A stretch of 32,000 bases of DNA, from NCBI RefSeq assembly GCF_019049675.1, contig NZ_JAFMOW010000066.1, positions 305,615-337,614 of the forward strand. The letters are read 5' to 3'. Below, one piece after another: positions 1 through 25,566 of this stretch. Position 1 is the first letter of the stretch. Each line of letters opens with the position of its first letter. The notes under the pieces are model-generated. The model was not told the DNA's origin and searched no databases. It saw nothing but the letters and a program-made list of their open reading frames with translations. Position numbers and translations under genes: made by a program. The DNA comes from Rahnella bonaserana. Lineage in GTDB: Bacteria; Pseudomonadota; Gammaproteobacteria; Enterobacterales; Enterobacteriaceae.

Positions 1-173
1 TGCTGCACAACCAGCCACAACAAACCGGCTTCCTGAATTTTTTTCAGGCGCAGCGCCATTTCATGTTCATCAGGCGGCTGAGTTTCAAACGAGGCCGTGC
101 CATGCAAAACATGCCAGGCATAAATTTTCTGCATGGCAGGAATATGTCTTTCATCTGCTTCAATAATTTCCAT
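1..173 (-). CDS. GNAT-family N-acetyltransferase (phosphinothricin/MnaT-like), N-terminal part only; gene runs off the window start
   Basis: Absent from the ORF track because it is open at the window edge. The reverse complement from ATG at 173..171 reads MEIIEADERHIPAMQKIYAWHVLHGTASFETQPPDEHEMALRLKKIQEAGLLWLVVQ, which is typical of the N-terminus of PAT/MnaT-type GNAT enzymes. It is divergent from the LysR gene. Confidence 0.55.
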   Translation of the reverse strand, partial: MEIIEADERHIPAMQKIYAWHVLHGTASFETQPPDEHEMALRLKKIQEAGLLWLVVQ

Positions 174-270
174 CTTTCCGGTCTCGTGGGGGATTTCGCT
201 ATAGCCTACTCTTTCCGAAAAGGGGCTGGGAGGGCAAACTGTTTATCACCGGTATAAGGAAAACTTTGAG

Positions 271-1149
271 ATGCCCAGCCTTAATCTTGATCACCTGACC
301 ACATTTAAACTGGTCGCCAGCCGGAAAAGCTTTTCCGGTGCTGCTGACGCGCTCGGGCTTTCGCAACCTGCGGTCAGCCTGCAAATCCGTCAGCTTGAAC
401 AAACTCTGCAGGCCCGTCTGGTTGAGCGCACGGGCAGGGGGATCCGCCTGACCGCTGCCGGGCAAACATTGTTGCCACACATCAGTCATATCGATCAGGC
501 CGTGAGTGCCGCGCTGCTTTCGGTGGCGGCAACGACACAGGAAGTCAGCGGAACCGTAACTCTTGGAACGGGCGCAACGGCGTGTATCCATCTGCTGCCG
601 CCGCTTTTAGAGCAATTGCGCACTGAGCATCCGTTGTTAACCGTGCGTGTCCGAACGGGCAATACTCAGGAAATTTTGCAGGCGGTGGAAGATAACCGCG
701 TTGATATCGGCCTCGTCACGATGCCTGCGGCGGGGCGCAATCTGCATATCAGCCCGGTCACGCAGGATGATTTCAAAGTCATCATGAAAAAGGATGACAA
801 CGCGACGGACAGAAGTATGACGGCGGCAGAGCTTCAGACATTACCGCTGATCGTTTCTGAATACGGCAGCGGAACCCGCGCATTAATCGACGGCTGGTTT
901 CAGGCGGAAGGGATTGCCGTGCAGCCGGTGATGGAACTCGGCAACATCGAAGCGATTAAAAAAATGGTGCAGGCCGGTCTGGGCTACAGCATCGTGCCGG
1001 GAATGTCGGTGGCCAGCCCGCAGGACCGGATTGGATTGAGTGTGATGGCATTGCAGCCTGTTCTCACCCGTCCGCAGGGTATTGTGATGCGACAAGATAA
1101 AACGCTGACGAAAGGTATGGCGGAGTTGCTGAAGTTAATCGGCGGCTAA
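271..1149 (+). CDS. LysR-family transcriptional regulator
   Basis: 292 aa. The N-terminal wHTH signature FKLVASRKSFSGAADALGLSQPAVSLQIRQLE is followed by a LysR substrate-binding-type C-terminal region. It is divergent from the GNAT gene, the classic LysR arrangement. Confidence 0.9.
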   Translation: MPSLNLDHLTTFKLVASRKSFSGAADALGLSQPAVSLQIRQLEQTLQARLVERTGRGIRLTAAGQTLLPHISHIDQAVSAALLSVAATTQEVSGTVTLGTGATACIHLLPPLLEQLRTEHPLLTVRVRTGNTQEILQAVEDNRVDIGLVTMPAAGRNLHISPVTQDDFKVIMKKDDNATDRSMTAAELQTLPLIVSEYGSGTRALIDGWFQAEGIAVQPVMELGNIEAIKKMVQAGLGYSIVPGMSVASPQDRIGLSVMALQPVLTRPQGIVMRQDKTLTKGMAELLKLIGG

Positions 1150-1285
1150 ACTCGCCGCCACCTGCCGGATTTCGTGCATATGCTTTTTTCATCTTACAGA
1201 TGCTTTTTTTGTTTTTTAAACCGCCGCAGTCCTGCTGCTATAGTCATTTTCTTACGCATTAGCGGTTATTTTTTAAGGAAAAAAA

Positions 1286-2104
1286 GTGAAACTGACCTTA
1301 CCTCATTTACGGACTGGCGCTGTGGTATTGCTGGCGGGATTACTGCTGGCGGGTTGTGACCAAAAAAGCAGTGATGCAAAACACATTAAAGTCGGCGTGA
1401 TTAACGGCGCGGAGCAAGATGTCGCGGAAGTCGCTAAAAAAGTCGCGAAGGACAAATACGGTCTGGACGTCGAACTGGTCGGTTTCAGCGGCTCATTACT
1501 GCCGAATGACGCAACCGAACACGGCGAACTGGATGCCAACGTTTTCCAGCATCGTCCGTTCCTGGAGCAGGATAATAAAGCTCACGGTTATCATCTGGTG
1601 GTGGTCGGCAACACTTTCGTCTTCCCGATGGCCGGTTATTCGAAAAAGATTAAAACTGTGGATCAACTGAAAGATGGCGCCACCGTGGCGATCCCGAACG
1701 ATCCGACCAATTTAGGTCGCGCGCTTCTGCTGATGCAAAAAGAGAAACTGATCACCCTGAAAGACGGCAAAGGCCTGCTGCCAACGGCGCTGGATATTGC
1801 TGAAAATCCGTATCACCTGAATATTATGGAACTGGAAGGCGCACAGCTGCCGCGTGTGCTGGACGATCCGAAAGTTGATGTAGCCATCATCAGCACCACT
1901 TATATCCAGCAAACCGGATTATCGCCTGTACACGACAGCGTATTTATTGAAGACAAAAACTCGCCGTACGTGAACATTCTGGTTTCACGACCAGACAATA
2001 AAGATGCGCAAAACGTGCAGGATTTTCTGAAATCGTATCAGTCACCGGAAGTGGCGAAAGCAGCTGAGAAAATCTTTAACGGCGGGGCGGTTCCGGGCTG
2101 GTGA
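1286..2104 (+). CDS. nlpA: Lipoprotein-28 / MetQ-NlpA family methionine-binding lipoprotein
   Basis: 272 aa with a GTG start. The lipobox LLAGC sits in the signal peptide. The sequence is near-collinear with E. coli NlpA as I remember it (…DAKHIKVGVINGAEQDVAEVAKKVAK.KYGLDVELVGFSGSLLPNDAT.HGELDANVFQHRPFLEQDN…FNGGAVPGW). Confidence 0.85.
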   Translation: MKLTLPHLRTGAVVLLAGLLLAGCDQKSSDAKHIKVGVINGAEQDVAEVAKKVAKDKYGLDVELVGFSGSLLPNDATEHGELDANVFQHRPFLEQDNKAHGYHLVVVGNTFVFPMAGYSKKIKTVDQLKDGATVAIPNDPTNLGRALLLMQKEKLITLKDGKGLLPTALDIAENPYHLNIMELEGAQLPRVLDDPKVDVAIISTTYIQQTGLSPVHDSVFIEDKNSPYVNILVSRPDNKDAQNVQDFLKSYQSPEVAKAAEKIFNGGAVPGW

Positions 2105-2138
2105 TGGGGTTTGTGGGGGATATCTTGAGGAACTAAAA

Positions 2139-2160
2139 ATGGTGTCCCCTACAGGAATCG
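2139..2160. repeat. Distal att repeat (attL-like): 22-bp perfect copy of the tRNA-Arg 3' end
   Basis: ATGGTGTCCCCTACAGGAATCG at 2139-2160 is identical to 14393-14414. The flanking bases differ on both sides. Confidence 0.9.
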
Positions 2161-2365
2161 TATTTAATATTAACCATATGTTTTTGTTTGATTTTATTTT
2201 TATTGTGAATATATATACCCATTTATGTACCCATCATGATAGTGATAGGAGTCATCCTGCGACAAAAATGTTAAAGGCGATGTATCAACCTTCAATCATA
2301 TGCATAGTTAATGAGTGCTTTAATGTAAAATGTAACTCTGTATGTGAAAATAAATACAACATATC

Positions 2366-4096
2366 CTAATCAAAACTAGATTCCTTATTTGTCCGCAGAT
2401 CGATCTCTTCTTCAAATTCCGTAACAAATGCCATTAATGGTACTGGGAAACGATTAACTCTGCTTGCCAGAAACAAAATAGGTAGATAATCACTTCTAAT
2501 CACTGACAGTTCTTCATATCCTTTAGTGACTTTTGCCTCCTTAACTATTTCATCCAAGAAACATTCGGCTTCCTTATGAATAGGTATATTTGACAATGCT
2601 AAGCCATGATTCCTTTCACCATTGTAGTAAAATTCTTCGGATTGTACGGAGGGAAACCAAATCTGAATGTTAGTATGTGAAAGATGCTTCAGTTTTAAGT
2701 TTTGCAATGATTCATAAGTATTGATGTCGTTAAACAGCGAAGCAAAAAAAGCAAGATAGGAATAAAGAACACTTGCCTTTGTAACTTCTTTTTTGTATTC
2801 CTCATGATTGTTTTTATCTAAAAAATCCAAATATTTGAACAATGTTCTTGGATAGTTCCTATTTGTTTCGAATGAATAGGTTATTCTTTCTGTGATCGCA
2901 TGTATCCAATCTTTGACTAATTGATCATATTGACTATCTAAACTTAAAAAGTAAATTGCTAGAGCTAATTCTATAGAATTTTCATCTTTAAATGGTAAAT
3001 ATACACTAGAATTATTAATAATTAACTTGGCTAAAGTAGCTTGTAATAAATGGACTCTATGTGCTAAGTCATCAATAGGAAGTTCTGCTTCATAATTTTC
3101 CCGCATTGTCCAAATAAGCCATATTCCATAAGTTGCGAACCTGCCAATGACATCATAGACTTTAAAGTTTATGGCGTACTTACAGTGAGGGTAAACCCCC
3201 AAAGAAACTCCATCTCTAAAGTCTGCTAAAGGCGATATCTTATCTACTAATAATTCGTTGTTTAATATTAGGTACTGGTCAATTATCTTGTGGAATATTT
3301 CATTTATATTTTGTTTTACTTTACTTTCTTTTATTTCTTTTACTATATCCCAGCATGCTAGAATGCATAGTTCAGAAGATAAATAGGCAGATTCTATGTT
3401 TTTCAAATCCCTAGACCACGAATGAAGGATCCAAAGGCATAGGCTGATTTGACGAAGTAAAGTTATTGTGTTCTTATTTACGTCTCCTTTTCTTTTTTTT
3501 CTTTCCAATAATAACCCCTTTATAACATCCCGAAAATACATGACAGATGATTCTGGATCATCAATCATGGCCAAGGATTTTCTGAGGTTTTTTCTGATAG
3601 GCTCTGGTAATAATGACTCATTGAGAAGATGTGTCATTATTAGTTGAGCTAAGTGGTCACCATTCCAAATTTCATAATTAATATTTTCGGTGGTGTTGTT
3701 TTTAATATATCCATTAACATCTGCTTGAATCGTTTCATTAATAACACCCCCAAAGCATAGACAGATGGTAATTTTACCCTTTCTTTGATTTTTTGATAGT
3801 TTTGAGTTTAAATAACTATCTTTTATTTCATCTAAGGAAGGTCTTAAAGCTTGATTTTGAGGGCCAGACCAATCTGTGCGAGTTAAATCTCCAGCTTTGA
3901 TAGAGAATAAGTATGTAATATCCTCTTGTTTTGAAGATTTTTTTATAGCTGCAATATCCACTCCATTTTGCTTAGTACCCCTGCCTGGAGTTGATGTAAC
4001 AATCATTCCCATTTGGCTCAATAAGTCTGGAAGAATTGCATCTAATTCATCCCTTTCACGTAATGATGAAATGTATTGCTTAAGAATTAATCTCAT
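2366..4096 (-). CDS. Cargo protein B, 576 aa: N-terminal Mrr/PD-(D/E)xK-like putative nuclease domain plus a large helical C-terminal region; family unrecognised
   Basis: Long ORF in very AT-rich DNA. Its ATG overlaps the upstream gene's stop (ATGA at 4093-4096), and a GGAG lies 7 nt upstream. The N-terminus reads ...RERDELDAILPDLLSQMGMIVTSTPGRGTKQNGVDIAAIKK...ITYLFSIKAGD. This fits the pattern helix-E / G-x-D-I / (S)-x-K seen in restriction-endonuclease-like folds. No Walker A, HNH, TIR or TM segments were seen. Confidence 0.8.
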   Translation of the reverse strand: MRLILKQYISSLRERDELDAILPDLLSQMGMIVTSTPGRGTKQNGVDIAAIKKSSKQEDITYLFSIKAGDLTRTDWSGPQNQALRPSLDEIKDSYLNSKLSKNQRKGKITICLCFGGVINETIQADVNGYIKNNTTENINYEIWNGDHLAQLIMTHLLNESLLPEPIRKNLRKSLAMIDDPESSVMYFRDVIKGLLLERKKRKGDVNKNTITLLRQISLCLWILHSWSRDLKNIESAYLSSELCILACWDIVKEIKESKVKQNINEIFHKIIDQYLILNNELLVDKISPLADFRDGVSLGVYPHCKYAINFKVYDVIGRFATYGIWLIWTMRENYEAELPIDDLAHRVHLLQATLAKLIINNSSVYLPFKDENSIELALAIYFLSLDSQYDQLVKDWIHAITERITYSFETNRNYPRTLFKYLDFLDKNNHEEYKKEVTKASVLYSYLAFFASLFNDINTYESLQNLKLKHLSHTNIQIWFPSVQSEEFYYNGERNHGLALSNIPIHKEAECFLDEIVKEAKVTKGYEELSVIRSDYLPILFLASRVNRFPVPLMAFVTEFEEEIDLRTNKESSFD

Positions 4097-5781
4097 TTTA
4101 ATTCTCCAAACTTATACTTTATTAACATTAATTCTAGACCAGTTGTATCCGTAACTAACATTGCAGGACGTTCAAATGAATGCTCAAAAGTTCCCATTGT
4201 CATTTCTTGCCTCACTGGAGGGGTATTTATGCTTTCAGTATAATATATGGAACCATTACCATAGAGAATATGTAAAGGGGTTGCAAATTGAGAGAGTATT
4301 GAGTTTTTATGGGCTTGCTTATACACTTCTTCCATTTCTTTATGTTCATTTACTTCGAATTCATTTGTTAAGCTTGCTGAATTTTTTAACTCATTTACCA
4401 TCCATGATATATTTGCTTGTTTTTTTAGTGTTTCGATTTTATTTTGAAAGTCCTTAGCTAAGGCAGATTCTAAATGTAATTTTAAGTATTCATCTATAGT
4501 TGCAAGGTAGTTAGATAAAAAAACATCAGTTATCACATGCGCGGAAGTTAGTCTATTTTTTTCATCTAGTTTTTCATACAGCAATACTATAAATTCTAAT
4601 GCTAATTTGGGATGAAAGAAGAACCAGCCTGAACTTCGTATGATTATATATTTAAGTTGTCTTTGAGTGAGGTTTTCAGTCTCTAAAACACGATTCTTAA
4701 ATTTGTAATTATTGGCATCGTTAATGTTTTTATGGATTGAATCAATAATGGGAAATAGCTTGTCATTTCCTTCTGAAAACCATTTTATTACTATTTTTTT
4801 AAATATTTCTTCATTTTGAGCTATGTGATGTTCTATAGATGATAATTTACTTAGATATTCAATATTTTTTCCCCTTAAACCCATGGTCTCAATGAATTCT
4901 ATTGTTTTATTATCGCTTCCGCTGTCGATTAAATTATATATTATGCTGTTTAGTATCGGGGCGTTTTCATCATTCAATATTGTTTCATTCTTAACCTTAT
5001 TTGACAGATAGTCAAATAAGGTCTCATCAATTGTCGTCCTCTTATGGAAAAGACAATTTGCAAAGAAGTCAGAGTCCTCATTAACATTAGTTTGGATTAT
5101 ATCAATCAATTCCGTCGTTGTGATTAAATTTACCTTAACAAAGTTTATCAGAGCTGAAATTGCTAATTCTTTAAGCTCATTTAGACTCTCATCATCAAGG
5201 ATTTCGAGCATTTTTATACACACTTCTTTTTTTTCAATTTGGTTGTGATCTAAAAACACCAAACATTGATTGATTATTTCAATTTTTTTAGAATTCAATA
5301 AAGGGATTAAGTATGAAATTAAATATTCGTCATTAGATTCCTTTGTTGATAAAAGTATAGGAATTATTAGGTTTTTACTTTCTTGTGGCGAAGATATTAA
5401 CCATTCTACAATTTTTTCTGATTTTTCTACGCCTATATAATTACTACATAGGTTTTCCTCGAACCTACTAAAGGATTTTGGACTCAAATATATACGATTC
5501 TGATGTGTAAATTCTGTTAATAAAATGGCATCCTCTAGAGTAAGTCTTAACTCAGGTAGTAATTTCTCAATTAATTGTGATCTTCCAAAAAATCCGGAAC
5601 CTTCAGTGTTAGCTGTTTTTTTTGTAAGAATATCAATAAGTGAAATCTCACCCGAACTATAAGTATCTGATATCATTTTGACTAATTCTAAATGTTCATC
5701 CGAATTGACTATCATTCTTATCATCTCTGATAAAAATAAATCAGTATTTTCGCTTAGTTCTATTAGTTCAGGTTTGTTCAT
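4093..5781 (-). CDS. Cargo protein A, 562 aa: predicted all-helical repeat (HEAT/ARM-like) protein with a short beta-rich C-terminus; family unrecognised
   Basis: Long ORF, first gene of the AT-rich two-gene unit. The sequence is rich in L/I/E/K/N and looks amphipathic-helical. I recognise no catalytic motif. The only P-loop-like string, GSGFFGRS, lacks the lysine. Confidence 0.8.
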   Translation of the reverse strand: MNKPELIELSENTDLFLSEMIRMIVNSDEHLELVKMISDTYSSGEISLIDILTKKTANTEGSGFFGRSQLIEKLLPELRLTLEDAILLTEFTHQNRIYLSPKSFSRFEENLCSNYIGVEKSEKIVEWLISSPQESKNLIIPILLSTKESNDEYLISYLIPLLNSKKIEIINQCLVFLDHNQIEKKEVCIKMLEILDDESLNELKELAISALINFVKVNLITTTELIDIIQTNVNEDSDFFANCLFHKRTTIDETLFDYLSNKVKNETILNDENAPILNSIIYNLIDSGSDNKTIEFIETMGLRGKNIEYLSKLSSIEHHIAQNEEIFKKIVIKWFSEGNDKLFPIIDSIHKNINDANNYKFKNRVLETENLTQRQLKYIIIRSSGWFFFHPKLALEFIVLLYEKLDEKNRLTSAHVITDVFLSNYLATIDEYLKLHLESALAKDFQNKIETLKKQANISWMVNELKNSASLTNEFEVNEHKEMEEVYKQAHKNSILSQFATPLHILYGNGSIYYTESINTPPVRQEMTMGTFEHSFERPAMLVTDTTGLELMLIKYKFGELK

Positions 5782-5865
5782 TTTTCACTCAATCTTTGGT
5801 TGAAATAACTATTACTAGATAGAACTATTAATAATTATTTAAAACGGTTATTAAGATGGCGCGCA

Positions 5866-5884
5866 ATGCTATCCCCGCCACGCC
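5866..5884. other. P2/186/P4-type cos-like site (19-nt cohesive-end sequence)
   Basis: The reverse complement of 5866-5884 is GGCGTGGCGGGGATAGCAT. As I remember them, the 186 cohesive end is GGCGTGGCGGGGAAAGCAT (18/19 match) and the P2/P4 end is GGCGAGGCGGGGAAAGCAC (16/19 match). The site lies in a 396-bp non-coding gap between the Sid-like gene and the cargo. Confidence 0.6.
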
Positions 5885-6177
5885 TGCCCGCTTTTGATAT
5901 CGCTTTTAATGCATATGCATGGACGCGCTCAGAGCACGCCAGAGCAGGTCTTAAGGTTATTGAAAAATACTCGTTTTAAAATGCAAAAGCATGCAGTCAG
6001 AATGCACCACTCATTTAGAGAAAATCAATGATTTGGTCGAGGTTTTAACGTAAATTTTTGAATGGGAGCAGATTAGTTCTCGAGCAAGAAAAGTGGCGGG
6101 ATTTTTTGATAATAATGGGCATCTCATAAGCATGATCATGCTGAGATACCCATTTTGGGGATGAGCAATTTGGGCAG

Positions 6178-6927
6178 TTATGGTGCCGTTGTGCCGAGCT
6201 GCTCTTCCTTACGCTTAACGGCTGCAAAAGCCATTGAACGACCGCCACCGCTGGCGAGTTTCGCGCTGAAAAACTTCGTCTCAGGCCGGTGAACACCAAG
6301 TTGTGCTAAAACAGGTTCCTGAGCCATGTCGAATCTGTAGCGCGTCATCTCATCTTTCAGATACTGATTAATTTCTTCAAAAATGACGGCGTCCGGACTG
6401 ACTTCGTAGTCGCTCAGCCTGCCCCCCAGCGTTACGGTAGCCTGCTGGTATCTTAAGGCTGTACGTTTCAATGATACTGCCCGGATTAGCGTCTCAAGGC
6501 CTGCTGACAGCGCCTTTTTCAGTTCCTGTTCTGCATAGGCCATTAACGCACTTTCATGGCTGTCTAAAAGCGCTTTGCCAGAGCCTGAACAGGTAATTTC
6601 CTGACGGTCTTTTTCAATGTCCAGACTGAGAAGCAGGTGTCCCAGCTCGCGTGACATTTCCTGATTTGCCAGACGTTGCAGTTGCTGCGTTTTCATTTCG
6701 TCGCTGACCTGACCGCGCATTTTCAAAAAGGCCTCGCGCCACTGGCCACCGGACTGCTCACTGAGATTATCTATTTCCTCTTTTTGATTTTTGCAGCGGG
6801 TCATGTCGGCAATTATCTCCTCCATTTTATTCACATTCCCCTGCTGGGTCTGCTTGGTATCGAGATAACGCGAAATAGCCTGCTGCACGGCAGGTGATAA
6901 TTCTGACTCAGGCGTATTGGGTTTCAT
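6178..6927 (-). CDS. sid: P4 Sid-like capsid size determination (external scaffold) protein
   Basis: 249 aa, against 244 aa for P4 Sid. Several blocks match my recollection of P4 Sid: WREAF....G.VSDE.K, YAEQELKKAL...LIRAV, QEPVL. The position next to cos fits a P4-type morphogenesis module. Confidence 0.5.
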   Translation of the reverse strand: MKPNTPESELSPAVQQAISRYLDTKQTQQGNVNKMEEIIADMTRCKNQKEEIDNLSEQSGGQWREAFLKMRGQVSDEMKTQQLQRLANQEMSRELGHLLLSLDIEKDRQEITCSGSGKALLDSHESALMAYAEQELKKALSAGLETLIRAVSLKRTALRYQQATVTLGGRLSDYEVSPDAVIFEEINQYLKDEMTRYRFDMAQEPVLAQLGVHRPETKFFSAKLASGGGRSMAFAAVKRKEEQLGTTAP

Positions 6928-7102
6928 AAATGGCTCTCACGTTGGGTCGGTTAATATCAATAATTATGAGCCTGACCGGAGAGCGTTTCTATTGAGGCAG
7001 GACGTACTGTAGACGGCAGAACGGCGGAAGCTAACGCATATTTTTCAATGCTGTAATCTAAGCATATCGCTAATAACTTCAGGAAAGAAAGGGGAAATAT
7101 CA

Positions 7103-7318
7103 ATGCTCACACTCAAACTCGGCACCCAGCAAATCACACTCACTCAGCGTGATGCCATGCGGTTAATTGAAGGCATGATGTTAGCAATCAAAGACCCTGC
7201 CGGCGCGGGCAGGAATGCGCTACATCTTGGGGATTTGACTCTTTCCTCTCAGCCGCAGTCTGTGAATAAGCCGGTAAATTACTCTTCAGGCGCGAAGGAC
7301 ACGCTGACAAACTGTTGA
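7103..7318 (+). CDS. Hypothetical 71-aa protein
   Basis: ATG preceded by AGGGGA 8 nt upstream. Composition is normal. It is divergent from the Sid-like gene. No family recognised. Confidence 0.35.
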   Translation: MLTLKLGTQQITLTQRDAMRLIEGMMLAIKDPAGAGRNALHLGDLTLSSQPQSVNKPVNYSSGAKDTLTNC

Positions 7319-7403
7319 GGGTATTTGTTACCCGTCGGACGATGAAAAAAACGCCTGCCAGAAATAAACGCTTCGGGTTTCTGTATTATTCAGTAATTCT
7401 CGG

Positions 7404-7617
7404 CGCGTACATGTAGTACAGGTGCGTACACCTATGATTTGCAATGTAAAATACTGTACTACATGCCACATTTACACCGCGTACATGTAGTACAGTTGGG
7501 GACATGTAATGACAAATCAGCCGTGTACGACATGTACTACACGCTATTGCCGATGTAGTACATGAAAAAACCTTTAAATATCATAGCTTGTACGCGGTGT
7601 ACGACATGTACTACATG
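7404..7617. repeat. Iteron cluster, putative satellite replication origin
   Basis: The core ATGTAGTACA or its complement TGTACTACAT occurs six times, at 7411-7420, 7455-7464, 7485-7494, 7533-7541 (9/10), 7553-7562 and 7607-7616. An 18-mer CGCGTACATGTAGTACAG is repeated at 7404 and 7478. A 19-mer GTGTACGACATGTACTACA is repeated at 7523 and 7598. AT-rich stretches flank the cluster. It lies just downstream of the primase-helicase gene. Confidence 0.65.
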
Positions 7618-7653
7618 GATTAATAATAAAATAAGATACGCGAGGCACTGACC

Positions 7654-10329
7654 TCAGCCGATGACCTCCTGATTGAGCACGTAAACAAACTTCGGCCCTA
7701 TTTCTGGCAGGCGAATTTGCTTTTGTATCCGGTTTTCGCTGGTTTCCGTGATCCAGCCGTTTTCACGGCACAGCAGGGCGGTTTTCTTCTGGTCTGATGT
7801 GCCGCAAATCTCTTTCCAGCCGCTTGGCAATACGTAAAAAGTGGTCACCGCATCACTGGCATTATCACCTCTTACCACTCTGCGATAGCCCACCATATTG
7901 GCAGGCCGGTTTTTATCATCATTCCAGTCTGCAAAACGGGTGAACTGATTGGCCGTGATGAAACGCCGTATCCGCTCCAGCGCATCCGCTTCTTCCTGAT
8001 TGGCAGAGTGGCCACGGTCTTTCAGCCACGCATCAAGACAGGCTTGTGCGGCACGAAGCGCCTCGCCGGATGGCCATCCGGTAATGCCTGCAAGCGAGGC
8101 CAGCTCGCCCGCCACGGCCAGCAGGGCAAAGCGATCTACGATGCGCCCCACTTGTTTACCCGATTCGGCAGGGAGCAGGGTACGTTCATACTCTTTTTTC
8201 AGCGTCTTGGCGCGGTGCGTGACGTCCTGAAGGTTCGCGGTCAGGTAGCGTATCCAGTCGCGAAAAGGCGCGCCGTGGTACTGCTTGCTGGCCTGTTCAA
8301 GATGTTCCGCAAAATCCTTACCGCTGTCGAAACCGTGCAGGTTTTCAAAGGCACCGTGTACGCCGGTATCGCTGGGGATTTGCACCATGCGTACCCCCAC
8401 GCCCGCGCCGGTGCGTTTTTCGCCTGCCTCGGCGGCATGTTCCATAATGGAGACCTCGCCAGTTGACATGTAGAGCATCGACCACGTCACCGGATCACGT
8501 ACGCTGCCATCAACGCGACCGCGCGCCTTACCCTGACCGTTACCCAGCATGTAAGCAATCCGGCTGGCCTCTTTGCCGTCCACTTCGCTGATCTCATCGA
8601 GCATCAGGGCGGCATCATTGCGCCGCAGGGCGATACCTTCCAGCGCGTTACCGGTGGCGCGCCACGTTTTCCAGAAGTCGGGACTGCCGCACAGTGAAGC
8701 GGCCACCTTCATGGTGGTGGTTTTCCCGTCGGTAGACTCGCCTTTCAGGTGATAGCCACCGCCGCCCGCGCCGATTAAGTGGAGCAGCGGCGCCGCCAGT
8801 GCGAGGCTGACGCAAAAGGTCAGGCGTGAGTTATGAATACAGTAACGGCCTATCTGTTCGACCCATTCCGCCGTGGTGCCCGCCGTTCTGAAATCGTTCT
8901 TGGAAGAATAGGCCGACTGCAAAATCACAGACTCAGCACCGCTGCCTATGACCTCATCCTGCAAAACATACACGGAGCCGTGCCAGCCGGTTTTGTTCAC
9001 GCAGGTGACCTTACGCACGGGGCGGCAGGTGGAGATATATTCCATCAGATAGCCCCGCGCTGAACCGTTCACGCTGATAAAGTGCAGGCCGTTCTCCAGC
9101 AGCACCTCCCGCAGCTCCTGACCGCTACCGGCCAATACGGTCATGGGCATTGCCCACTGATGATTAATCCCGTTTGAGTCTTCCCATTCCAGCAGGCGGC
9201 CAAACTTTCCGCCGTCGGCATCACAGCTGATGGCCGTCACCCGCAGCGGGCTGCAAATTTTGATTTGCCTGACCTGACCGCTGTCGCCGTCATCGTTGAC
9301 CGGCTTATCGAACCACAGAAAATCCTTTGTCAGGCGAAAGCCGTGAGGCAGACGGGTTTCAGTGTCGTTAGGGTTCACCATTTCATCGGTAAAAGCGTCA
9401 CGGGCTCGCTGGACGCCAAATTCACGCCGGAAATCATCCCAGTCCGCTTTAAACTGGCCAGAGGGGATGGTTACCCACCCGTTGACGGCCTGCGCGGCCT
9501 GAAATGCTTTCTCCCGACCGGGATTATCTTTCCCGTCGGCAAAGTCATTATCACCGGCGATCACCAGACGGGTATCAGGCCACTTTTCCCTCAGCGCCTT
9601 GGCCACGTTGAGCAGATTGTTTGCCGATACGGCGGCGATGCACCAGCCTTCACTGAGGCCTGAGACGGTGATAGCCGTGGCAAAACCTTCTGTAATAATG
9701 ACCCGTTCAGGATAGTCATCCGGTACGGGCGTGACGGCCAGAAAAGCCCCCGACATTTTTGAGCCAGAGAGCAGGCATTTATCGCCCGTGGGGCTGATGA
9801 GCTGTGCGCCGGTGGTCTGATTATCCAGCGTGACCAGCGGCAGCAGGAGAGAGCCTTCCGCAAAGGTCATTCCCGCCAGTGAAACAGGGTGAGCGGTCAG
9901 CGGATATTGATGACCGATGAGTCCCTTACCTTTGAGATAAAGGCTTTCCCCCTGAGAGGACTGAGCGGAAAGAGCCTGATAAGTTTTTATCAGCTGAGCC
10001 CTTTTTTGTGCGTCAGAGGTATTTTTCTTGGCAGGCGCGGGGGCAGTGGCCACTTTACCGGCCAGCAGTTTTTTTATTTCAGCGGCCGCGGCTGACTTAT
10101 TCTTTCCTGATATCAGGCAGAGTAAATCCAGACCGTCACCGTTCCCGCACTGATTACAAAACCATGTGCCGCGTCCGTCTTTATCGTCGAAGCGAAACCG
10201 GTCTTTACCGCCGCATTTAGGGCAGGTTCCATGTTTGTTATTTTCAGGAACATTTATCCCTAACGCTGGCAAAATAAAAGGCCAGTTTCCGCAGGCGTTT
10301 TTTAACGTGCCGGAGACGTGCATATTCAT
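7654..10329 (-). CDS. P4 alpha-type primase-helicase (Zn-finger, Toprim, P-loop/DUF927-like helicase)
   Basis: 891 aa. The N-terminal zinc-binding motif is CPKCGGKDRFRFDDKDGRGTWFCNQCG. The Toprim motifs are VIITEGFATA ... VIAGDND. The Walker A motif is GESTDGKTT. Confidence 0.9.
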   Translation of the reverse strand: MNMHVSGTLKNACGNWPFILPALGINVPENNKHGTCPKCGGKDRFRFDDKDGRGTWFCNQCGNGDGLDLLCLISGKNKSAAAAEIKKLLAGKVATAPAPAKKNTSDAQKRAQLIKTYQALSAQSSQGESLYLKGKGLIGHQYPLTAHPVSLAGMTFAEGSLLLPLVTLDNQTTGAQLISPTGDKCLLSGSKMSGAFLAVTPVPDDYPERVIITEGFATAITVSGLSEGWCIAAVSANNLLNVAKALREKWPDTRLVIAGDNDFADGKDNPGREKAFQAAQAVNGWVTIPSGQFKADWDDFRREFGVQRARDAFTDEMVNPNDTETRLPHGFRLTKDFLWFDKPVNDDGDSGQVRQIKICSPLRVTAISCDADGGKFGRLLEWEDSNGINHQWAMPMTVLAGSGQELREVLLENGLHFISVNGSARGYLMEYISTCRPVRKVTCVNKTGWHGSVYVLQDEVIGSGAESVILQSAYSSKNDFRTAGTTAEWVEQIGRYCIHNSRLTFCVSLALAAPLLHLIGAGGGGYHLKGESTDGKTTTMKVAASLCGSPDFWKTWRATGNALEGIALRRNDAALMLDEISEVDGKEASRIAYMLGNGQGKARGRVDGSVRDPVTWSMLYMSTGEVSIMEHAAEAGEKRTGAGVGVRMVQIPSDTGVHGAFENLHGFDSGKDFAEHLEQASKQYHGAPFRDWIRYLTANLQDVTHRAKTLKKEYERTLLPAESGKQVGRIVDRFALLAVAGELASLAGITGWPSGEALRAAQACLDAWLKDRGHSANQEEADALERIRRFITANQFTRFADWNDDKNRPANMVGYRRVVRGDNASDAVTTFYVLPSGWKEICGTSDQKKTALLCRENGWITETSENRIQKQIRLPEIGPKFVYVLNQEVIG

Positions 10330-10419
10330 AAATATATACCTCAGATGTAAGCGACCCTGCGCTTTCGCGCATCAGTAATAGCCGTTTATTCAACGGGGCT
10401 ACCGGAGCTTAATGAGTCT

Positions 10420-11406
10420 TTAAACCGTGATGGAATTTAACGGGTTGAATGTAATGGCATCCTGAAGATATCCGGGTGCAAAATGCGCGTAGGTCATCGT
10501 TTGCTGGATAGTGGCATGCCCTAATACGCGCTGAAGCGTAATAATATTCCCGCCGTTCATCATAAAATGGGTGGCAAAGGTATGACGTAATACGTGCGCC
10601 GCTTGACCCTTTGGCAGGTCGGGCTTTACCTTTCTTAATGTCATGCGAACCGTATTGTAATTTGAAACAAAAAGTCGCCCGCTGGCTTTTGTTTTTATGG
10701 CGCGCACCAATTCATCCGAAACAGGGACTGACCTGCGTTTGCCGTTTTTAGTTTTCATGAACGTGATGACGTTCTTGATAATATGCTCACCTTTGAGGTT
10801 AGAGACTTCTCCCCAGCGGCCACCGGTGGCCAGACATAACTGAGCCACTTTAAGATTATCGCCCTCAAGCGTTTGCAGCAGTGCCTTAATCTCATCCGTG
10901 GTTAAAAACGCCATCTCTGTTGTTCCTTCCCTGAGCTTTTTGACCTCCCTGAAAGGATGCGCGTTATGGTACTCACCGGCACTGATTAACTTGGTGAACA
11001 TGCCGCTCAGAATGGCCTGATGTCGGTTAATGCTGGCGGGTTTGAGCCCCAAATCCAGCATCATAATCCGGTAATCAATAATCGCTTTATGGGTAAGCTG
11101 GTCTGCGCGGGTGACACCCATTTCTGACAGGTGATTGACGATGCTGTGCAGGCGGCTCCGGTCAATCTCTCCCCGCACATGATGCTTGCCGTGATATACC
11201 CACCAGAGGCTGAGAAGCTCGGTCAGCTTTCGTCTGTCAGCGCTTTTATCTAACCACGCTTTATCCTGATAACGGGCAATAATATAGCGCTCGAAAATCT
11301 GCGCTTCGCCTTTGGTATTAAATTTGCGGCGTATACGTTTTCCGTCGCAGCCTTGTGGCCGAATATCTACAAGATATGTAGCGTCCGTGAGTTTTTTAAT
11401 TGACAT
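10420..11406 (-). CDS. Tyrosine recombinase, P2/186-family integrase-like (second integrase of the island)
   Basis: 328 aa. The N-terminus MSIKKLTDATYLVDIRPQGCDGKRIRRKFNTKGEAQIFERY parallels the P2 Int N-terminus as remembered. Catalytic signatures are ATGGRWGE (R), HVLRHTFATH (HxxR) and GHATIQQTMTYAH (H...Y). Confidence 0.85.
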   Translation of the reverse strand: MSIKKLTDATYLVDIRPQGCDGKRIRRKFNTKGEAQIFERYIIARYQDKAWLDKSADRRKLTELLSLWWVYHGKHHVRGEIDRSRLHSIVNHLSEMGVTRADQLTHKAIIDYRIMMLDLGLKPASINRHQAILSGMFTKLISAGEYHNAHPFREVKKLREGTTEMAFLTTDEIKALLQTLEGDNLKVAQLCLATGGRWGEVSNLKGEHIIKNVITFMKTKNGKRRSVPVSDELVRAIKTKASGRLFVSNYNTVRMTLRKVKPDLPKGQAAHVLRHTFATHFMMNGGNIITLQRVLGHATIQQTMTYAHFAPGYLQDAITFNPLNSITV

Positions 11407-11444: not shown

Positions 11445-11711
11445 TTAAAAATTCCCGCACATCCCTTTTTCTTTTAATTCTGCCAATACAAAAGACAAAT
11501 CTTCGTCCACATAGCTGAGGATATGAGGCAGATAAAATGGCGTCAGCCCGTCGATTTCTCTTTTTCTTAAATCACATCCTAAAAAATAGGTCAGCTCCTG
11601 TGAGCGGTTAAGCTTGCGAAATGCTTCAAGGCTGAGTGTTACTTTTACATCATTGCTAACATCATCGATTTGAGCTGTAACCTGAGTTTTATTATCTGTT
11701 TGGTTATGCAT
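11445..11711 (-). CDS. Hypothetical 88-aa protein (shorter start preferred)
   Basis: The internal ATG at 11711 is preceded by GGAGG 7 nt upstream. The track ORF (to 11792) would overlap the upstream gene extensively. No family recognised. Confidence 0.45.
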   Translation of the reverse strand: MHNQTDNKTQVTAQIDDVSNDVKVTLSLEAFRKLNRSQELTYFLGCDLRKREIDGLTPFYLPHILSYVDEDLSFVLAELKEKGMCGNF

Positions 11712-11907
11712 GAGTAACCTCCAGAACTGGCAGGCGACCTGCAAAGAAAAGGATGAACTTATCAGAGAGTAATTTCCTAGCCGCTTGCTCATTAGCGGCT
11801 ATCACTGCTTTACGATGGGGTAGCTTAGGAGCGTCAGTACGGCTTACCGCGAGGAATAACCAATAATATACAGTTGGTGTCTGTGTGATATCATTCTTGG
11901 TAGTCAT
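11704..11907 (-). CDS. Small 67-aa protein resembling Icd-like (host cell division inhibitor-like) proteins of P4-type prophages
   Basis: The start at 11907 (MTTKNDITQTPTVYYWLFLAVSRTD...ILFFAGRLPV) avoids the operator and promoter region that the longer track ORF would cover. The hydrophobic-W/F..LA..R.D ... FAGRLPV pattern recalls annotated Icd-like proteins. This rests on memory only. Confidence 0.4.
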   Translation of the reverse strand: MTTKNDITQTPTVYYWLFLAVSRTDAPKLPHRKAVIAANEQAARKLLSDKFILFFAGRLPVLEVTHA

Positions 11908-11997
11908 AGCGTAAATCTCGATTACGTTGTGATTAAACGCCTCGGCAGTGTTGCAAGCACTTCGGGGCGTTGCTTTTTGTAGTATCTGATAACGATG

Positions 11998-12085
11998 CTG
12001 TGCGCACAGTATGTTTCTAAGTGTGCGCACATGTCAACTCTTACATTCCGCCATTTTTTGCTGTATCGTGTGCGCACATGACAAT
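11998..12085. promoter_or_regulatory. Divergent promoter/operator region with three TGTGCGCACA palindromes
   Basis: The perfect 10-bp palindrome TGTGCGCACA occurs at 11999-12008, 12022-12031 and 12069-12078; the last two share the 13-mer GTGTGCGCACATG. A leftward promoter candidate has -35 TTGACA (12037..12032), an 18-nt spacer containing operator 2, and -10 CATACT (12013..12008) abutting operator 1. A rightward candidate has -35 TTGCTG (12058-12063), a 16-nt spacer containing operator 3, and -10 GACAAT (12080-12085). Confidence 0.55.
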
Positions 12086-12105
12086 GACAGTTTTGAGGCG
12101 TAAAC

Positions 12106-12312
12106 GTGACTAGTGGTAATACAAACAACAAATCGGCCAAGAAAAATATTCGCTTTCCCCATGAATTAATTGACGAGATAGATGCGAGTATTGAACGTGA
12201 AAAAAATAATTCTCCTGGAACTAACTTTTCCTCATGGGTGCTTGATGCTTGTGAAAGAAAACTCAAGGCAGAGTTGCGTAAAAAAGGGCAGCAGACGATA
12301 GTCAAAGATTGA
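12106..12312 (+). CDS. Small ribbon-helix-helix-like DNA-binding protein (68 aa)
   Basis: GTG start with GAGG 8 nt upstream. The stretch KKNIRFPHELIDEIDASIERE...NFSSWVLDACERKL has the beta-strand/helix/helix pattern of CopG/Arc-type RHH proteins. It is transcribed divergently from the leftward operon. Confidence 0.5.
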   Translation: MTSGNTNNKSAKKNIRFPHELIDEIDASIEREKNNSPGTNFSSWVLDACERKLKAELRKKGQQTIVKD

Positions 12313-12361
12313 ATAGTTATCATGTTGACCAGATACCTCTCTGGAATAAAAAGGGGAGGTA

Positions 12362-12580
12362 TTATTGCTGTAAATAACGTTGGTTTTTTTGTGCTTCTAT
12401 CCATTCTTCTATCTCTCTTTCAATCCATGCAACTGTGCGAATACCAGTCTTAATTTGCTTAGGAAATGCATTGTTTTTTATATCCTCATAAATTCTCGTC
12501 CGCGACTTCCCTGTTTTCTCAATTACCTTTGGGAGGCGAATTAATTTATAAGAGGTTTCACTTTGAGTTTGCGAATGCAT
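12362..12580 (-). CDS. alpA: AlpA/Vis-family phage transcriptional regulator / excisionase-like protein
   Basis: 72 aa. LIRLPKVIEKTGKSRTRIYEDIKNNAFPKQIKTGIRTVAWIEREIEEWI is the characteristic AlpA-family HTH. Confidence 0.8.
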   Translation of the reverse strand: MHSQTQSETSYKLIRLPKVIEKTGKSRTRIYEDIKNNAFPKQIKTGIRTVAWIEREIEEWIEAQKNQRYLQQ

Positions 12581-12940
12581 TTTCTACTCCTGAATGATTG
12601 TTAATTAGTTTTATGGCAGTAAGTTATGGTTGCTTACGGGACGTCAAAATAATAAACAAAACATTGTTGACTTGTAAAACGCTGCATAATAACGGGTGGT
12701 TGACAAAATAATGAATAAGGCGAAAAGCAATATTGGAGAGTAGGAACAGGTCTAAGTGGTTCTAAGTAGTTTTGAAAGTTGGAAGATAAAATTTTTTAAA
12801 TAGGTTGGAGTAAGAACTCGTGGATAAGTTGCTTTTATTTCGTCCGGTTGAACCTTTAGGAAGAAAATTTCATGTTTGTTTTTGTGATCCTTGTCACAAT
12901 TTTGAATGTGAGTTTATTAAGAAAGTTTGGTATTTCATAT

Positions 12941-12972
12941 TAGAAAAGGTGTATTAATGTTCATAATACACC
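12941..12972 (-). terminator. Rho-independent terminator downstream of the P4-type integrase
   Basis: A perfect 9-bp stem pairs GGTGTATTA (12948-12956) with TAATACACC (12964-12972) around a 7-nt loop. On the minus strand it is followed by TTTTCT. Confidence 0.6.
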
Positions 12973-12980
12973 CTAATAGG

Positions 12981-14216
12981 TTAATTACTTTCCCAATTAA
13001 ATGCGTAAGGAGGAATGAATTCCCCTCTACAAGCTTCAAGGTAATCTGCCCACCATTGCAGCATTGGTCTACGTTCTTCCATATGTTCCGCTTTATGAAT
13101 GTAAGCAGCTCGGACGCTGTTCCTTTCCTGATGGCTCATTTGACGTTCCACGGCGTCGCGCGACCATCTGCCTGATTCAATCAATGCGCTACATGCCATT
13201 GCCCTGAATCCATGACCACAAATTTCTGTTTTCGTATCGAAACCCATCGTGCGTAAAGCTTTATTAATCGTATTCTCGCTCATAGGCTTATGTTGGTAAT
13301 GATCTCCGGGAAACATTAACACTTCATCACCAGAGAGTGCCTCAAGCTCTTCTATAAGCACCAGCGCCTGATTTGAAAGAGGAATTAAGTGAGGCATTTT
13401 CATTTTGCTGCCACGATAAGAAAAGCGTACTTTTTCCAATTCTTCGCGATTCGCTGGAATTTCCCATAGACGATGCTCTTTGTTAATTTCAGTCCATCTC
13501 GAAAATCTTAGTTCGCTTGAGCGAATGAAAATCAGCAGATTTAATTTAACGGCAATTTTGGTCAGATTCCGGCCGCTATAACTGTCGATTTTTTGCAATA
13601 GTTCAGGGATTCTTTCAAGTGGCAAAGCAGGCCGATGCTGTGACTTATGGGTTTCTATCGCTCCAGTCAGCTCTTGTGCAGGATTGTATTTAATAAGACC
13701 GCTTTGTACTGCATATCGCATTATTGAAGTCGTGCGTTGCTGTAAACGAGAGGCTAATTCGTGTTTCCCAGTTTCTTCAATTGCTCTAAGCGGAGCTAAA
13801 AGGTCTTGAGTGGTTAACCGATTTATCGCTTTGCTGCCGATTTCAGGGAAAAGATGAGTCTCGAAGGCTCGCATGACATTGAGAGAGTGTAGGGAAGACC
13901 AAGTTTTCTTTCTGGCATGCCACTGCCGCGCAATCTCTTCAAACGAGGCGATTTTTTCTTTTTCTGCATGCAAAGGATCGATCCCTTGAGACAAACTTTT
14001 CAGAAACTCATCCCGCGCCTTCCTTGCTTCTGCAAGTGTCATTATTGGGTACATGCCTAACGCCCGAGTGGTGTCCTTCCCATTAATAGTGCGTCTGAAG
14101 CGCCAATACTTCGAACCATTAGAATGCACCAGAAGATATAACCCATTGGAATCACTGAGTTTATAGGGTTTATCTTTTGGCTTCGAGCTCCTGATGCCTG
14201 TGTCAGTTAATGGCAT
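12981..14216 (-). CDS. int: P4/IntS-type tyrosine integrase (DUF4102-type N-terminus)
   Basis: 411 aa. The N-terminus MPLTDTGIRSSKPKDKPYKLSDSNGLYLLVHSNGSKYWRFR is typical of P4-family integrases. Catalytic signatures are IRSSELR (R), HGFRAMA (HxxR) and RAAYIH (Y). It lies about 180 bp from the tRNA 3' end. Confidence 0.92.
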   Translation of the reverse strand: MPLTDTGIRSSKPKDKPYKLSDSNGLYLLVHSNGSKYWRFRRTINGKDTTRALGMYPIMTLAEARKARDEFLKSLSQGIDPLHAEKEKIASFEEIARQWHARKKTWSSLHSLNVMRAFETHLFPEIGSKAINRLTTQDLLAPLRAIEETGKHELASRLQQRTTSIMRYAVQSGLIKYNPAQELTGAIETHKSQHRPALPLERIPELLQKIDSYSGRNLTKIAVKLNLLIFIRSSELRFSRWTEINKEHRLWEIPANREELEKVRFSYRGSKMKMPHLIPLSNQALVLIEELEALSGDEVLMFPGDHYQHKPMSENTINKALRTMGFDTKTEICGHGFRAMACSALIESGRWSRDAVERQMSHQERNSVRAAYIHKAEHMEERRPMLQWWADYLEACRGEFIPPYAFNWESN

Positions 14217-14392: not shown

Positions 14393-14414
14393 ATGGTGTC
14401 CCCTACAGGAATCG
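14393..14414. repeat. Proximal att repeat (attR-like) within the tRNA-Arg 3' end
   Basis: Identical 22-mer to 2139-2160. It overlaps the last 21 nt of the tRNA plus 1 nt downstream. Confidence 0.9.
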
Positions 14415-14468
14415 AACCTGTAACTAGCCCTTAGGAGGGGCTTGTTATATCCGTTTAACTAAGGAGAC
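14394..14468 (-). tRNA. argW: tRNA-Arg (anticodon CCU)
   Basis: The reverse complement GTCTCCTTAGTTAAACGGATATAACAAGCCCCTCCTAAGGGCTAGTTACAGGTTCGATTCCTGTAGGGGACACCA is 75 nt. It has a cloverleaf-compatible acceptor (GTCTCCT/AGGGGAC), the anticodon loop CT-CCT-AA, a GTTCGATTC T-loop and an encoded CCA. It is near-identical to E. coli argW as remembered. Confidence 0.92.
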
Positions 14469-23871: not shown

Positions 23872-25149
23872 TCAGAAGCTATAGTTGAAGTTCGCGCCGT
23901 ACAGCATCGCGGTGCCTTTAGCCTGGAATTCATAGTTCGGCACGCCGTCAGCCACTTTCTCGCTGATATTCACAGTCTGGCCATGCATGTAAGACACACC
24001 GACATCGACGGAAGCATCTTTATTGAAGGCATACGTGGTACCCGCAGATACCCAGAAGCGGTCCTGATCCGGGATAGAGATGGTGCGGTTATCTGCCGGA
24101 ACCGGGCTGTCATCGAAGGCGATACCGGTACGGAACGTCCAGTTATCATCGTAATAATAGGTGGTACCCAACGCGATGCGGTAAGCGTCGTGATAGCCTT
24201 CTTCTTTCTGGAACAGCGTCTGGCCGTTAGAACCGGTGGCTTTCAGCTCCTGGAACTGGCTCCAGCTGGTATAAGCCAGGCTGTAGTGAATCGCCCATTT
24301 CGGTGCCACTTTGTTATACCCGGACACTTCCCACATTTCTGGCAGATTCAGGGTCAGGGAACCCGGAACGGTGTGACCGCCCGTGCCGCCTAACGCCTGC
24401 GGAATGCCGTTGCGGTATTCGCCGTCAAAGTCGATTTTAACTTCTGAGCGATAAGTAAAGCCGTAACGGTTATTGTCATCGACTTCATAAAGAATACCGG
24501 CATTCCAGCCGTAGCCCCACTCGTCGCCTTTCAGCTTGGCGGCTTCAGTATCTGCTGGCAGTAAGCCGCCGGTTTTGATCGGCACCAGTTCACCGGCAGT
24601 ACGACGGATTTTCGCTTTCGCGTAGACGGCATCAAAGCCCACACCGAAGCTGAAATTCTGGTTCAAACGGTAAGCAACACTTAAGTTAGTGTTTATGGTG
24701 GTGAGATCTGTTTCACCGCCAATCGGGCCTGCCGGATAATTATCGCTAAATTCTGTCGCCAGACCGTAGTTAGAGGTCGCAGATGCGCCGACTGCCCATT
24801 GGTCATCAAGCGGCATAATAAAGTGGATATTGGGTACCCACTGATTTGGCGCAATATTATCATCACTGGTGCTGGCGCCGGTGACCGGGGATTTCCCTGT
24901 CACACTGACGTCCGGGTCGACATAAATCGCGCCCATAGAAAACGCCGGGCGGTTAAACATGGTCATGGTTGCCGGGTTACGGCTACCGGATGCGGCGGTG
25001 TCAGCGATAGCACCTTCGCCTGAGAATGAACGACCTAAACCCGCAGCAGTATATTCATTTAACTGAAAACCTGCTGCGTATACGTTGGAGGAAACAATTG
25101 CCACTGCAGCTGCCAGAGCTGATCTTTTAAACAGGTTTTTCTGGTTCAT
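23872..25149 (-). CDS. fadL: Long-chain fatty acid outer membrane transporter FadL
   Basis: The start is taken at [25 protein letters not shown] (signal peptide). The mature N-terminus [15 protein letters not shown] and the C-terminal ...NFNYSF are typical of FadL. Confidence 0.92.
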
Positions 25150-25230
25150 GACCAAAACCTCAATATTATGTTTTTTATCAAACAATGTTACATGGAGTAA
25201 CAATGAGCGCGGGATTGTAGGGTTCGTTAT

Positions 25231-25276
25231 CAGTCTGACAAATCAGACCAGTGAGCGAAGTATAGGTCTGACCTGT
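25231..25276. promoter_or_regulatory. Two FadR-operator-like sites upstream of fadL
   Basis: The reverse complement of 25238-25252 is ACTGGTCTGATTTGT, and 25264-25276 reads AGGTCTGACCTGT. The remembered FadR core is CTGGTCCGACCTGT. Confidence 0.45.
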
Positions 25277-25566
25277 GGTGTAGTTGCAATAATGTTTCAT
25301 TGATATTTAAAAATTGATGCAAGAAATTGGATCCACTTAACAAAAAACCAACAATAAAAGTTCAATTAAGAAACGTTAAAGTGAGAACGATGACTTAGTT
25401 TTAATCGATTACTTACATATACGTGATCTGGATCACTTCAAAGGCACATAATAAGTAAGTGCTAGTGTGTTGTCAGAAGGGTGGCGTAAAATACAGGCTG
25501 GAAATAAAACTTTATTCGCAAACAGGCCAGACGGTGGACGTTGCCGTTGATGCCGGGGAGAAAATT

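Follow-up and report, generated by a model that had tools for sequence, protein, structure and literature searches.

What is the AT-rich pair of large genes that sits at one end of a phage satellite in Rahnella bonaserana? The pair lies within a 32,000-nucleotide (nt) stretch of contig NZ_JAFMOW010000066.1 (positions 305,615-337,614), hereafter the window, whose numbering is used for all positions. An earlier note, made from the letters alone, had proposed it as a candidate undescribed anti-phage defence system. Both genes are on the minus strand, and they are the same two co-oriented open reading frames (ORFs) that the note had described: an intact ORF of 562 amino acids (aa; 65.1 kDa; 4093-5781), followed by an intact ORF of 576 aa (66.8 kDa; 2366-4096). 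The pair is very probably the Olokun anti-phage system, oloA-oloB, carried as cargo in the cos-proximal slot of a 12.3-kb P4-like satellite at argW, the gene for tRNA-Arg(CCU). Judged from its sequence, the cassette is a divergent and previously unannotated copy of an already known system, and not a new one.

Identity of the cassette

Papers that cite Millman et al. (2022) credit that work with the name Olokun. The 576-aa protein matches the PADLOC OloB profile (PDLC03926) with E=2.4e-157, its residues 1-555 aligning with profile positions 1-548 of 556. The 562-aa protein matches the OloA profile (PDLC03925) with E=4.5e-40, residues 26-557 aligning with positions 36-590 of 596, which amounts to 95% of both protein and profile. 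No competing PADLOC family was returned for either protein. The note had itself suggested this search, and had set a profile match to a described system beforehand as the check on novelty; with both OloA and OloB returned, the novelty is refuted.

The idea of a genuinely undescribed two-gene system draws on the lack of any NCBIfam, PHROG or above-threshold Pfam family for either protein, on public labels that read just "hypothetical protein" or "Chemotaxis protein", and on an OloA that is merely ~18% identical to other OloA proteins. It is nevertheless ruled out by the full-length OloA and OloB matches. The order, size and overlap of the genes are also the same as in 75 other Olokun loci, and OloB shares 37-42% identity with mainstream OloB across 96% of its length; the probability that the system is undescribed is negligible. 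What survives of the earlier proposal is the anti-phage part: as a member of the Olokun family, the pair would by analogy be an anti-phage cassette. (Both window proteins are 100% identical to "hypothetical" R. bonaserana proteins in public records. A dUTPase match was sub-threshold, at 18 bits versus a cut-off of 22, and was judged spurious.)

The arrangement of the genes is that of Olokun, with oloA upstream and oloB adjacent, co-oriented and overlapping at stop and start. The coupling junction (4107-4093, minus strand, tttGGAGaattaaaATGAgat) consists of a GGAG at 4107-4104, a 7-nt spacer and an ATGA overlap at 4096-4093, in which the ATG of oloB (4096-4094) and the TGA of oloA (4095-4093) are interleaved, just as had been read before. 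The same arrangement is found in 75 of 80 loci drawn from many phyla: a gene of ~580 aa in the same orientation overlaps the start of oloB by 4 nt or 17 nt, and since the overlap recurs so widely, the coupled architecture is a family trait. The two genes here would likewise be co-transcribed and translationally coupled, as the note had supposed. These loci (L001-L080) fall into two discrete junction classes, the overlap being exactly 4 nt in most and 17 nt in a minority, mostly from Gammaproteobacteria (Vibrio, Shewanella, Proteus, Mixta).

The cassette is compositionally foreign. The G+C content is 29.7% in oloA, 32.9% in oloB and 31.0% over the cassette as a whole (2161-5865), versus 47.7% in the rest of the island, the satellite core, and 51.9% and 53.7% in the two chromosomal flanks; a composition that is foreign even relative to the island had already been suspected from a few sampled lines. 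The ratio of nonsynonymous to synonymous substitution rates (dN/dS) is 0.18-0.24 for oloA and 0.10-0.11 for oloB, so both genes are under purifying selection and the cassette is being maintained. Repeats within 2100-6200 amounted to chance AT-rich matches and nothing else. An ORF of 76 aa on the plus strand (2139-2369), which runs across the distal att repeat and the AT-rich spacer, was not accepted as a gene. Two other patches of low G+C content (33-38%) occur in the window, both outside the Olokun cassette: one at 12001-13000, inside the satellite, covering a 160-aa ORF (11922-12404), the AlpA gene and the spacer to the integrase, and one at 25001-25500, in the chromosomal flank.

The OloB nuclease

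A further feature expected of Olokun, an OloB with an intact PD-(D/E)xK active site, is also present, the catalytic role of the residues being predicted from the sequence. In an AlphaFold2 (AF2) model of OloB (predicted local distance difference test score, pLDDT, 84.5; predicted template modelling score, pTM, 0.82), residues 1-160 (3617-4096, minus strand) fold into an alpha/beta domain, and the rest, residues 161-576 (2369-3616, minus strand), is assigned by DSSP to a large alpha-helical domain of ~400 aa, which might bind the partner or DNA. Residues E14, E17, D19, D24, G45-V46-D47, S65-x-K67 and E121 are conserved without exception in 26 OloB homologues of different phyla.

Structure prediction followed by a Foldseek search, which the note had called for, was informative for one part of the protein and not for the other. 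Full-length OloB gave non-specific helical-repeat matches in the PDB, none of them at E<=0.001. The isolated N-terminal domain, modelled with a pLDDT of 78, has as its best match MspJI (4f0q_D; E=2.5e-4, probability 1.00, TM score 0.51), followed by FokI, EndoMS, McrC, MUS81, Avs3 and HamA, all of them PD-(D/E)xK nucleases. Pfam Mrr_cat is a sub-threshold match to residues 17-69 (E=0.043). (A profile of the OloB N-terminus run against PDB sequences returned a lone designed Kelch-repeat protein, which is spurious.) From sequence conservation and modelling, the N-terminus of OloB is thus predicted to be a PD-(D/E)xK nuclease domain of the MspJI/FokI/Mrr type, and OloB the nuclease effector of the pair, which agrees with the Mrr/PD-(D/E)xK-like N-terminus that had been read from the translation. 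D47 and K67, put forward in the same place as targets for mutagenesis, were a sensible choice: both are invariant across phyla and, because D47 and S65-x-K67 coincide with an MspJI-like fold, they fit the D...(Q/S)xK variant of the motif.

Is OloB, then, a modification-dependent restriction enzyme (type IV or MspJI-like), reading modified phage DNA? The best fold match is indeed the catalytic domain of MspJI, which has D...QxK where OloB has D47...S65xK67. The DNA of phage SPO1 contains hydroxymethyluracil, that of T7 is unmodified, and that of T4 is heavily modified. The homologous PfOlokun system degrades SPO1 DNA, as a reader of modifications should, but it also degrades T7 DNA, and it is not among the systems that degrade T4 genomic DNA (10.1101/2025.07.10.664194). 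Neither window protein showed an SRA-like domain or any other that reads modifications (Pfam; Foldseek of OloB), and an enzyme of this kind is quite improbable.

The first 28 residues of OloB (4013-4096) comprise only two helices (residues 2-28), which stand ahead of the nuclease core, are extremely conserved and have a low pLDDT in the isolated domain. As to the public labels, "Chemotaxis protein" is the UniRef name of OloB homologues, and one plasmid record likewise carries it under a match. Neither the sequence nor the fold of OloB gives that label any support, so it is probably a propagated misannotation.

The OloA partner

OloA is the less conserved of the two proteins. Word-index searches with it, either as a single sequence or as a 24-sequence profile, returned 3 close relatives, and its counterparts were hence taken from genomic loci, as the partner genes found beside oloB. 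By phmmer, the window OloA matches 73 of 75 such partner genes, and a profile built from 70 partner genes of other genomes matches it in turn with E=5e-63 over residues 4-560. An exhaustive phmmer search collected 322 representatives of the OloA family, of a uniform length of ~575 aa; fusions of OloA to other effectors were absent among the best 150 family representatives.

The profile of the family matches designed armadillo/HEAT proteins and YibA at profile positions ~125-260, with E values down to 6e-9, and Pfam finds HEAT_2 in 10 and Adaptin_N in 1 of 24 members. A Walker A/B motif or a transmembrane (TM)-like stretch was seen in neither OloA nor OloB, as the note had reported. At the level of the family, OloA is thus assigned to the HEAT/armadillo-repeat proteins, all-helical and without an NTPase motif, and the helical-repeat partner that the note had pictured beside the nuclease would be this HEAT/adaptin-like protein.

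Distribution and divergence of the family

Homologues of OloB at ~40% identity number more than 1100 and are spread over Cyanobacteria, Chloroflexi, Firmicutes, Nitrospirae, Proteobacteria and other phyla. Among species-representative genomes, 260 proved to encode OloB. It is absent from 50,697 records of phage genomes, and the oloA-oloB cassette is absent from all 5426 complete E. coli genomes. OloB relatives are encoded on 35 plasmids, 19 of them from Klebsiella. The one Klebsiella relative among the matches listed (H33-H47), from a plasmid of Klebsiella michiganensis, has ~23% identity; such a protein may represent a distant OloB-like variant and not classical Olokun.

Compared with 66 other full-length pairs, the window pair has a mean identity of 17.6% (maximum 21%) in OloA and 37% (maximum 42%) in OloB. 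This asymmetry runs through the whole family: in every one of 2211 locus pairs OloA has diverged further than its OloB, with median identities of 27% versus 44%, and the two proteins co-diverge (r=0.95). The most conserved segments across the family are the OloB N-terminus and the C-terminal ~80 residues of OloA. These patterns fit a co-evolving complex in which OloA, as sensor or scaffold, would evolve the faster; a broader possibility is an arms race with OloA as a rapidly evolving sensor and OloB as a constant effector.

By these comparisons the window pair falls into an outlying, AT-rich subclade from Enterobacterales with a very divergent OloA. Between the Rahnella and Pantoea satellites, identity is 40% in OloA and 63% in OloB. 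It is conceivable, although doubtful, that this Rahnella/Pantoea clade forms an Olokun subtype of its own, specialised on P4-like satellites, in which the diverged OloA could alter the specificity for trigger or target, for instance by sparing P2-like helpers.

The P4-like satellite

The island that carries the cassette is bounded by its att repeats, measures 12,276 bp and has the hallmarks of a P4-like element: a tRNA-adjacent integrase with att repeats, a primase, Psu, an epsilon-type protein, AlpA, a cos-like site and a size of ~12 kb. (P4-like satellites have a genome limit of ~12 kb; Rousset et al. 2022, PMC9122126.) The 22-bp att sequence ATGGTGTCCCCTACAGGAATCG occurs in exactly two exact copies (plus strand), one at 14393-14414, overlapping the 3' end of the tRNA-Arg(CCU) gene (argW; 14394-14468, minus strand) that serves as integration site, and one at 2139-2160 (attR), the distal boundary of the island. 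An Rfam scan of the island returned the tRNA and nothing else.

All the genes of the core assigned here are on the minus strand. The P4-type tyrosine integrase (12981-14216) adjoins the tRNA (NCBIfam PRK09692, E=3.7e-68; Pfam Arm-DNA-bind_3, Phage_int_M and Phage_integrase). It is followed by an AlpA-family regulator (12362-12580; Pfam Phage_AlpA, E=9.2e-18), a derepression protein of the P4 epsilon type (11445-11792; PF25738, E=2.2e-26), a P4 alpha-type primase/helicase (7654-10329; phrog_1139, E=1e-162; Pfam Zn_Ribbon_Prim, Toprim_3 and DUF927) and a Psu-like gene (6178-6927; phrog_6165, "polarity suppression Psu-like", E=1.4e-40), which anchors the cargo slot on the satellite side. Between the primase and the epsilon-type gene lies a second tyrosine recombinase of 328 aa (10420-11406; Pfam Int_N and Phage_integrase, XerC/D-like), which is unusual for a P4-like element.

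By its gene content the element belongs with the P4-like satellites, although it may be incomplete or a variant. With the protein of a Pantoea-type satellite (L082) as query, no homologue of Ogr/Delta was detected in it, and the 727-nt gap between psu and the primase (6928-7653) holds no minus-strand ORF of >=50 aa. (In L082, a 91-aa Ogr/Delta gene occupies the position that matches this gap.) Nor was there a match to Sid among the island proteins scanned (PHROG, Pfam). Since neither Ogr/Delta nor Sid was detected, the satellite may fail to activate the late genes of its helper or to resize the helper's capsids.

The cos-proximal slot

The cassette lies where the note had put it, between the distal att repeat and a cos-like core at 5866-5884 (minus strand), GGCGTGGCGGGGATAGCAT, which forms the proximal boundary of the slot. 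This core differs at 3 of 19 positions from the cos sequence of P2 and P4. Is this a true cargo slot, the variable segment between cos and att/int of a P4-like satellite, as had been suggested? Of the whole segment 2100-7700, E. coli shares just a block of ~80 bp around cos, which is found in 531 of the 5426 complete genomes. In one E. coli it adjoins a psu pseudogene of a P4-like remnant, and the slot between cos and integrase holds an AAA-ATPase and HNH pair in place of Olokun; in another it adjoins the portal gene of a P2-like prophage. The reading as a cargo slot is supported by these neighbours of the cos block, psu and other cargo in the first genome and a P2-like portal gene in the second, because they match the published arrangement, in which the cos and hotspot of P2 are placed beside the portal gene and the psu-int hotspot of P4 beside cos (Rousset et al. 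2022, PMC9122126).

Near-identical cos cores also lie upstream of oloA in four other loci (L081, L082, L047 and L054), and mainstream Olokun, too, has a cos-like core ahead of it in Mixta theicola and Pantoea leporis. The same cassette occupies the same slot in the divergent Pantoea-type satellite L082 and is found in a mini-island at argW, L081. The nearest relatives of the window pair are satellite cargo as well. (In the psu-oloA intergenic region of L082, 5715-6315 of that locus, there are two cos-like copies ~300 nt apart, GGCAGGCGTGGCGGGGCTACGAGC and GGCAGGCGTGGCGGGGATAACAT.) The mini-island (positions 1-4512 of L081) is 4.3 kb long, sits at tRNA-Arg(CCU) and is flanked by att copies at 151-172 and 4488-4509 that match at 19 of 22 positions. 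It contains an ORF for an Ogr/Delta-like zinc finger, a cos-like site (758), oloA, oloB and nothing else. Its DNA is 78% identical to window 2136-6006, homology stopping at the distal att repeat, and its OloB is 83% identical to that of the window. It looks like a decayed satellite in which the defence cargo was kept. Pantoea brenneri (L057) has a different arrangement, perhaps as a result of tandem elements. Its Olokun (22-3050) is not part of the psu-ogr-cos-int segment of the P4-like element next to it (primase 4630-5502, psu 7834-8277, ogr 8388-8621, cos 8858, int 10226-11047).

A location next to cos raises the question of whether the cassette serves the satellite and not the cell. It might act in the satellite life cycle, through interference with or exclusion of helpers and competitors or through post-segregational stabilisation, or it might be a silent passenger, and in neither case a general defence. 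The cassette adjoins cos downstream of psu, with no terminator detected between them by a terminator scan; it is AT-rich, lacks an obvious promoter and has been kept even in the decayed mini-island. Most Olokun loci, however, are found off satellites (260 species, many phyla, 35 plasmids), and Olokun operons expressed in E. coli defended it against phage (10.1101/2025.07.10.664194). Purifying selection speaks against a silent passenger in particular. A role confined to the satellite, or none at all, is therefore very unlikely, and the cassette is best read as Olokun defence cargo.

Probable mechanism of defence

How would such a pair protect its host? In the literature, OloA is described as adaptin-like and OloB as a PD-(D/E)xK nuclease, and OloA does not figure among the accessory proteins listed there as homologous to P-loop NTPases. 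PfOlokun forms a 2:2 OloA-OloB complex of ~278 kDa that degrades DNA of T7, SECphi17 and SPO1, nicks plasmid DNA and spares the genomic DNA of E. coli. Its activity appears only at 1 uM, possibly for want of a phage cue or of crowding, in the view of the authors, and mutations in the nuclease active site break the complex (10.1101/2025.07.10.664194).

By analogy with this homologue, in which the complex has been demonstrated, the translationally coupled OloA and OloB of the window would assemble into an OloA2-OloB2 complex, with a calculated mass of 264 kDa (versus ~278 kDa), and coupling may serve to hold their stoichiometry at 1:1. The HEAT-repeat OloA would then control or target the paired PD-(D/E)xK domains of OloB, and these would cut invading phage DNA while host DNA is spared, as was found for the homologue. 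Host, satellite and P2-like helper prophage might all be protected in this way against unrelated phages. Nuclease domains of the MspJI/FokI type must pair in order to make double-strand breaks. This need fits the side-by-side OloB domains that were modelled for PfOlokun (10.1101/2025.07.10.664194), and OloA could be the sensor or scaffold that holds the OloB dimer and licenses double-strand cleavage of phage DNA.

On the other hand, once triggered, OloB might degrade host and phage DNA alike and kill or arrest the cell, in which case protection would come from abortive infection and not from selective destruction of phage DNA. Many PD-(D/E)xK defence effectors are indiscriminate after activation, and no modification or self-marking gene lies beside the pair. 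PfOlokun acts in vitro only at 1 uM, and because this activity correlates just in part with defence in vivo, its specificity may broaden on activation, but the same enzyme left E. coli genomic DNA uncut and did no more than nick plasmid while the three phage DNAs were degraded (10.1101/2025.07.10.664194). Abortive infection thus appears unlikely here, although it deserves to be taken seriously.

Several points weigh against the cassette as a functional Olokun system of the published kind. No convincing sigma-70 promoter was found 5' of oloA (the promoter scan gave 15 sites, where 20 are expected by chance), and a cassette of 31% G+C may be silenced by H-NS in its host. The window OloA has no Pfam match of its own, its HEAT assignment coming solely via the family alignment, and reviews still list the mechanism of Olokun as unknown. 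There is also a discrepancy with the preprint: OloA is said there to contact an "N-terminal helical domain" of OloB (10.1101/2025.07.10.664194), whereas the OloB described here has its nuclease domain at the N-terminus and its large helical domain at the C-terminus. The two helices at residues 2-28 of OloB may be the interface with OloA.

Comparison with known systems

In gene order, in its overlapping stop and start and in the length of its proteins (about 570 and 575 aa), the cassette agrees with Olokun, and so it does in an OloB predicted to be a PD-(D/E)xK nuclease with every invariant residue and in an OloA whose family is HEAT/adaptin-like and which has no NTPase motif. It differs from mainstream Olokun in belonging to an outlying subclade, in its 31% G+C and in being carried on P4-like satellites of Rahnella and Pantoea. 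The slot is like the psu-cos-int hotspot of P4, with cargo beside cos, between psu and att/int, in a satellite of ~12 kb at a tRNA gene; unlike in E. coli, the host is Rahnella (Yersiniaceae), and the cargo is 3.7 kb long versus a reported average of 2.6 kb (PMC9122126). The extra tyrosine recombinase and the lack of a detectable Ogr/Delta or Sid also set this element apart from the P4-like satellites of E. coli.

Residues 1-160 of OloB share their predicted fold and D...(Q/S)xK-type motif with the cleavage domains of MspJI and FokI and with Mrr_cat. Unlike MspJI and FokI, OloB has no SRA or other DNA-recognition domain and instead a helical fusion of 400 aa and a separate HEAT-repeat partner; unlike Mrr_cat members, its sequence similarity to that family stays below the Pfam threshold. 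Among defence systems, the closest analogies may be with Hachiman (HamAB), AbpAB and Gabija, in which a PD-(D/E)xK or related nuclease and a larger accessory subunit combine in a stoichiometric complex (HamA being one of the weak fold matches of the OloB N-terminal domain). In those systems, however, the accessory subunit is a helicase or NTPase, whereas OloA is devoid of Walker motifs.

Significance

PADLOC or another standard tool for defence annotation would label this locus as Olokun, and as a discovery it carries little weight. Its interest lies in what it adds to the natural history of a known system. Olokun emerges as a recurrent cargo of the cos-proximal hotspot of P4-like satellites beyond E. 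coli, in Rahnella, Pantoea and Mixta. The asymmetric yet correlated divergence of OloA and OloB, together with the conserved C-terminus of the former and N-terminus of the latter, leads to a testable hypothesis about sensor, effector and the interface between them. Finally, the decayed mini-island at argW illustrates how the cargo of a satellite may turn into a chromosomal defence locus.

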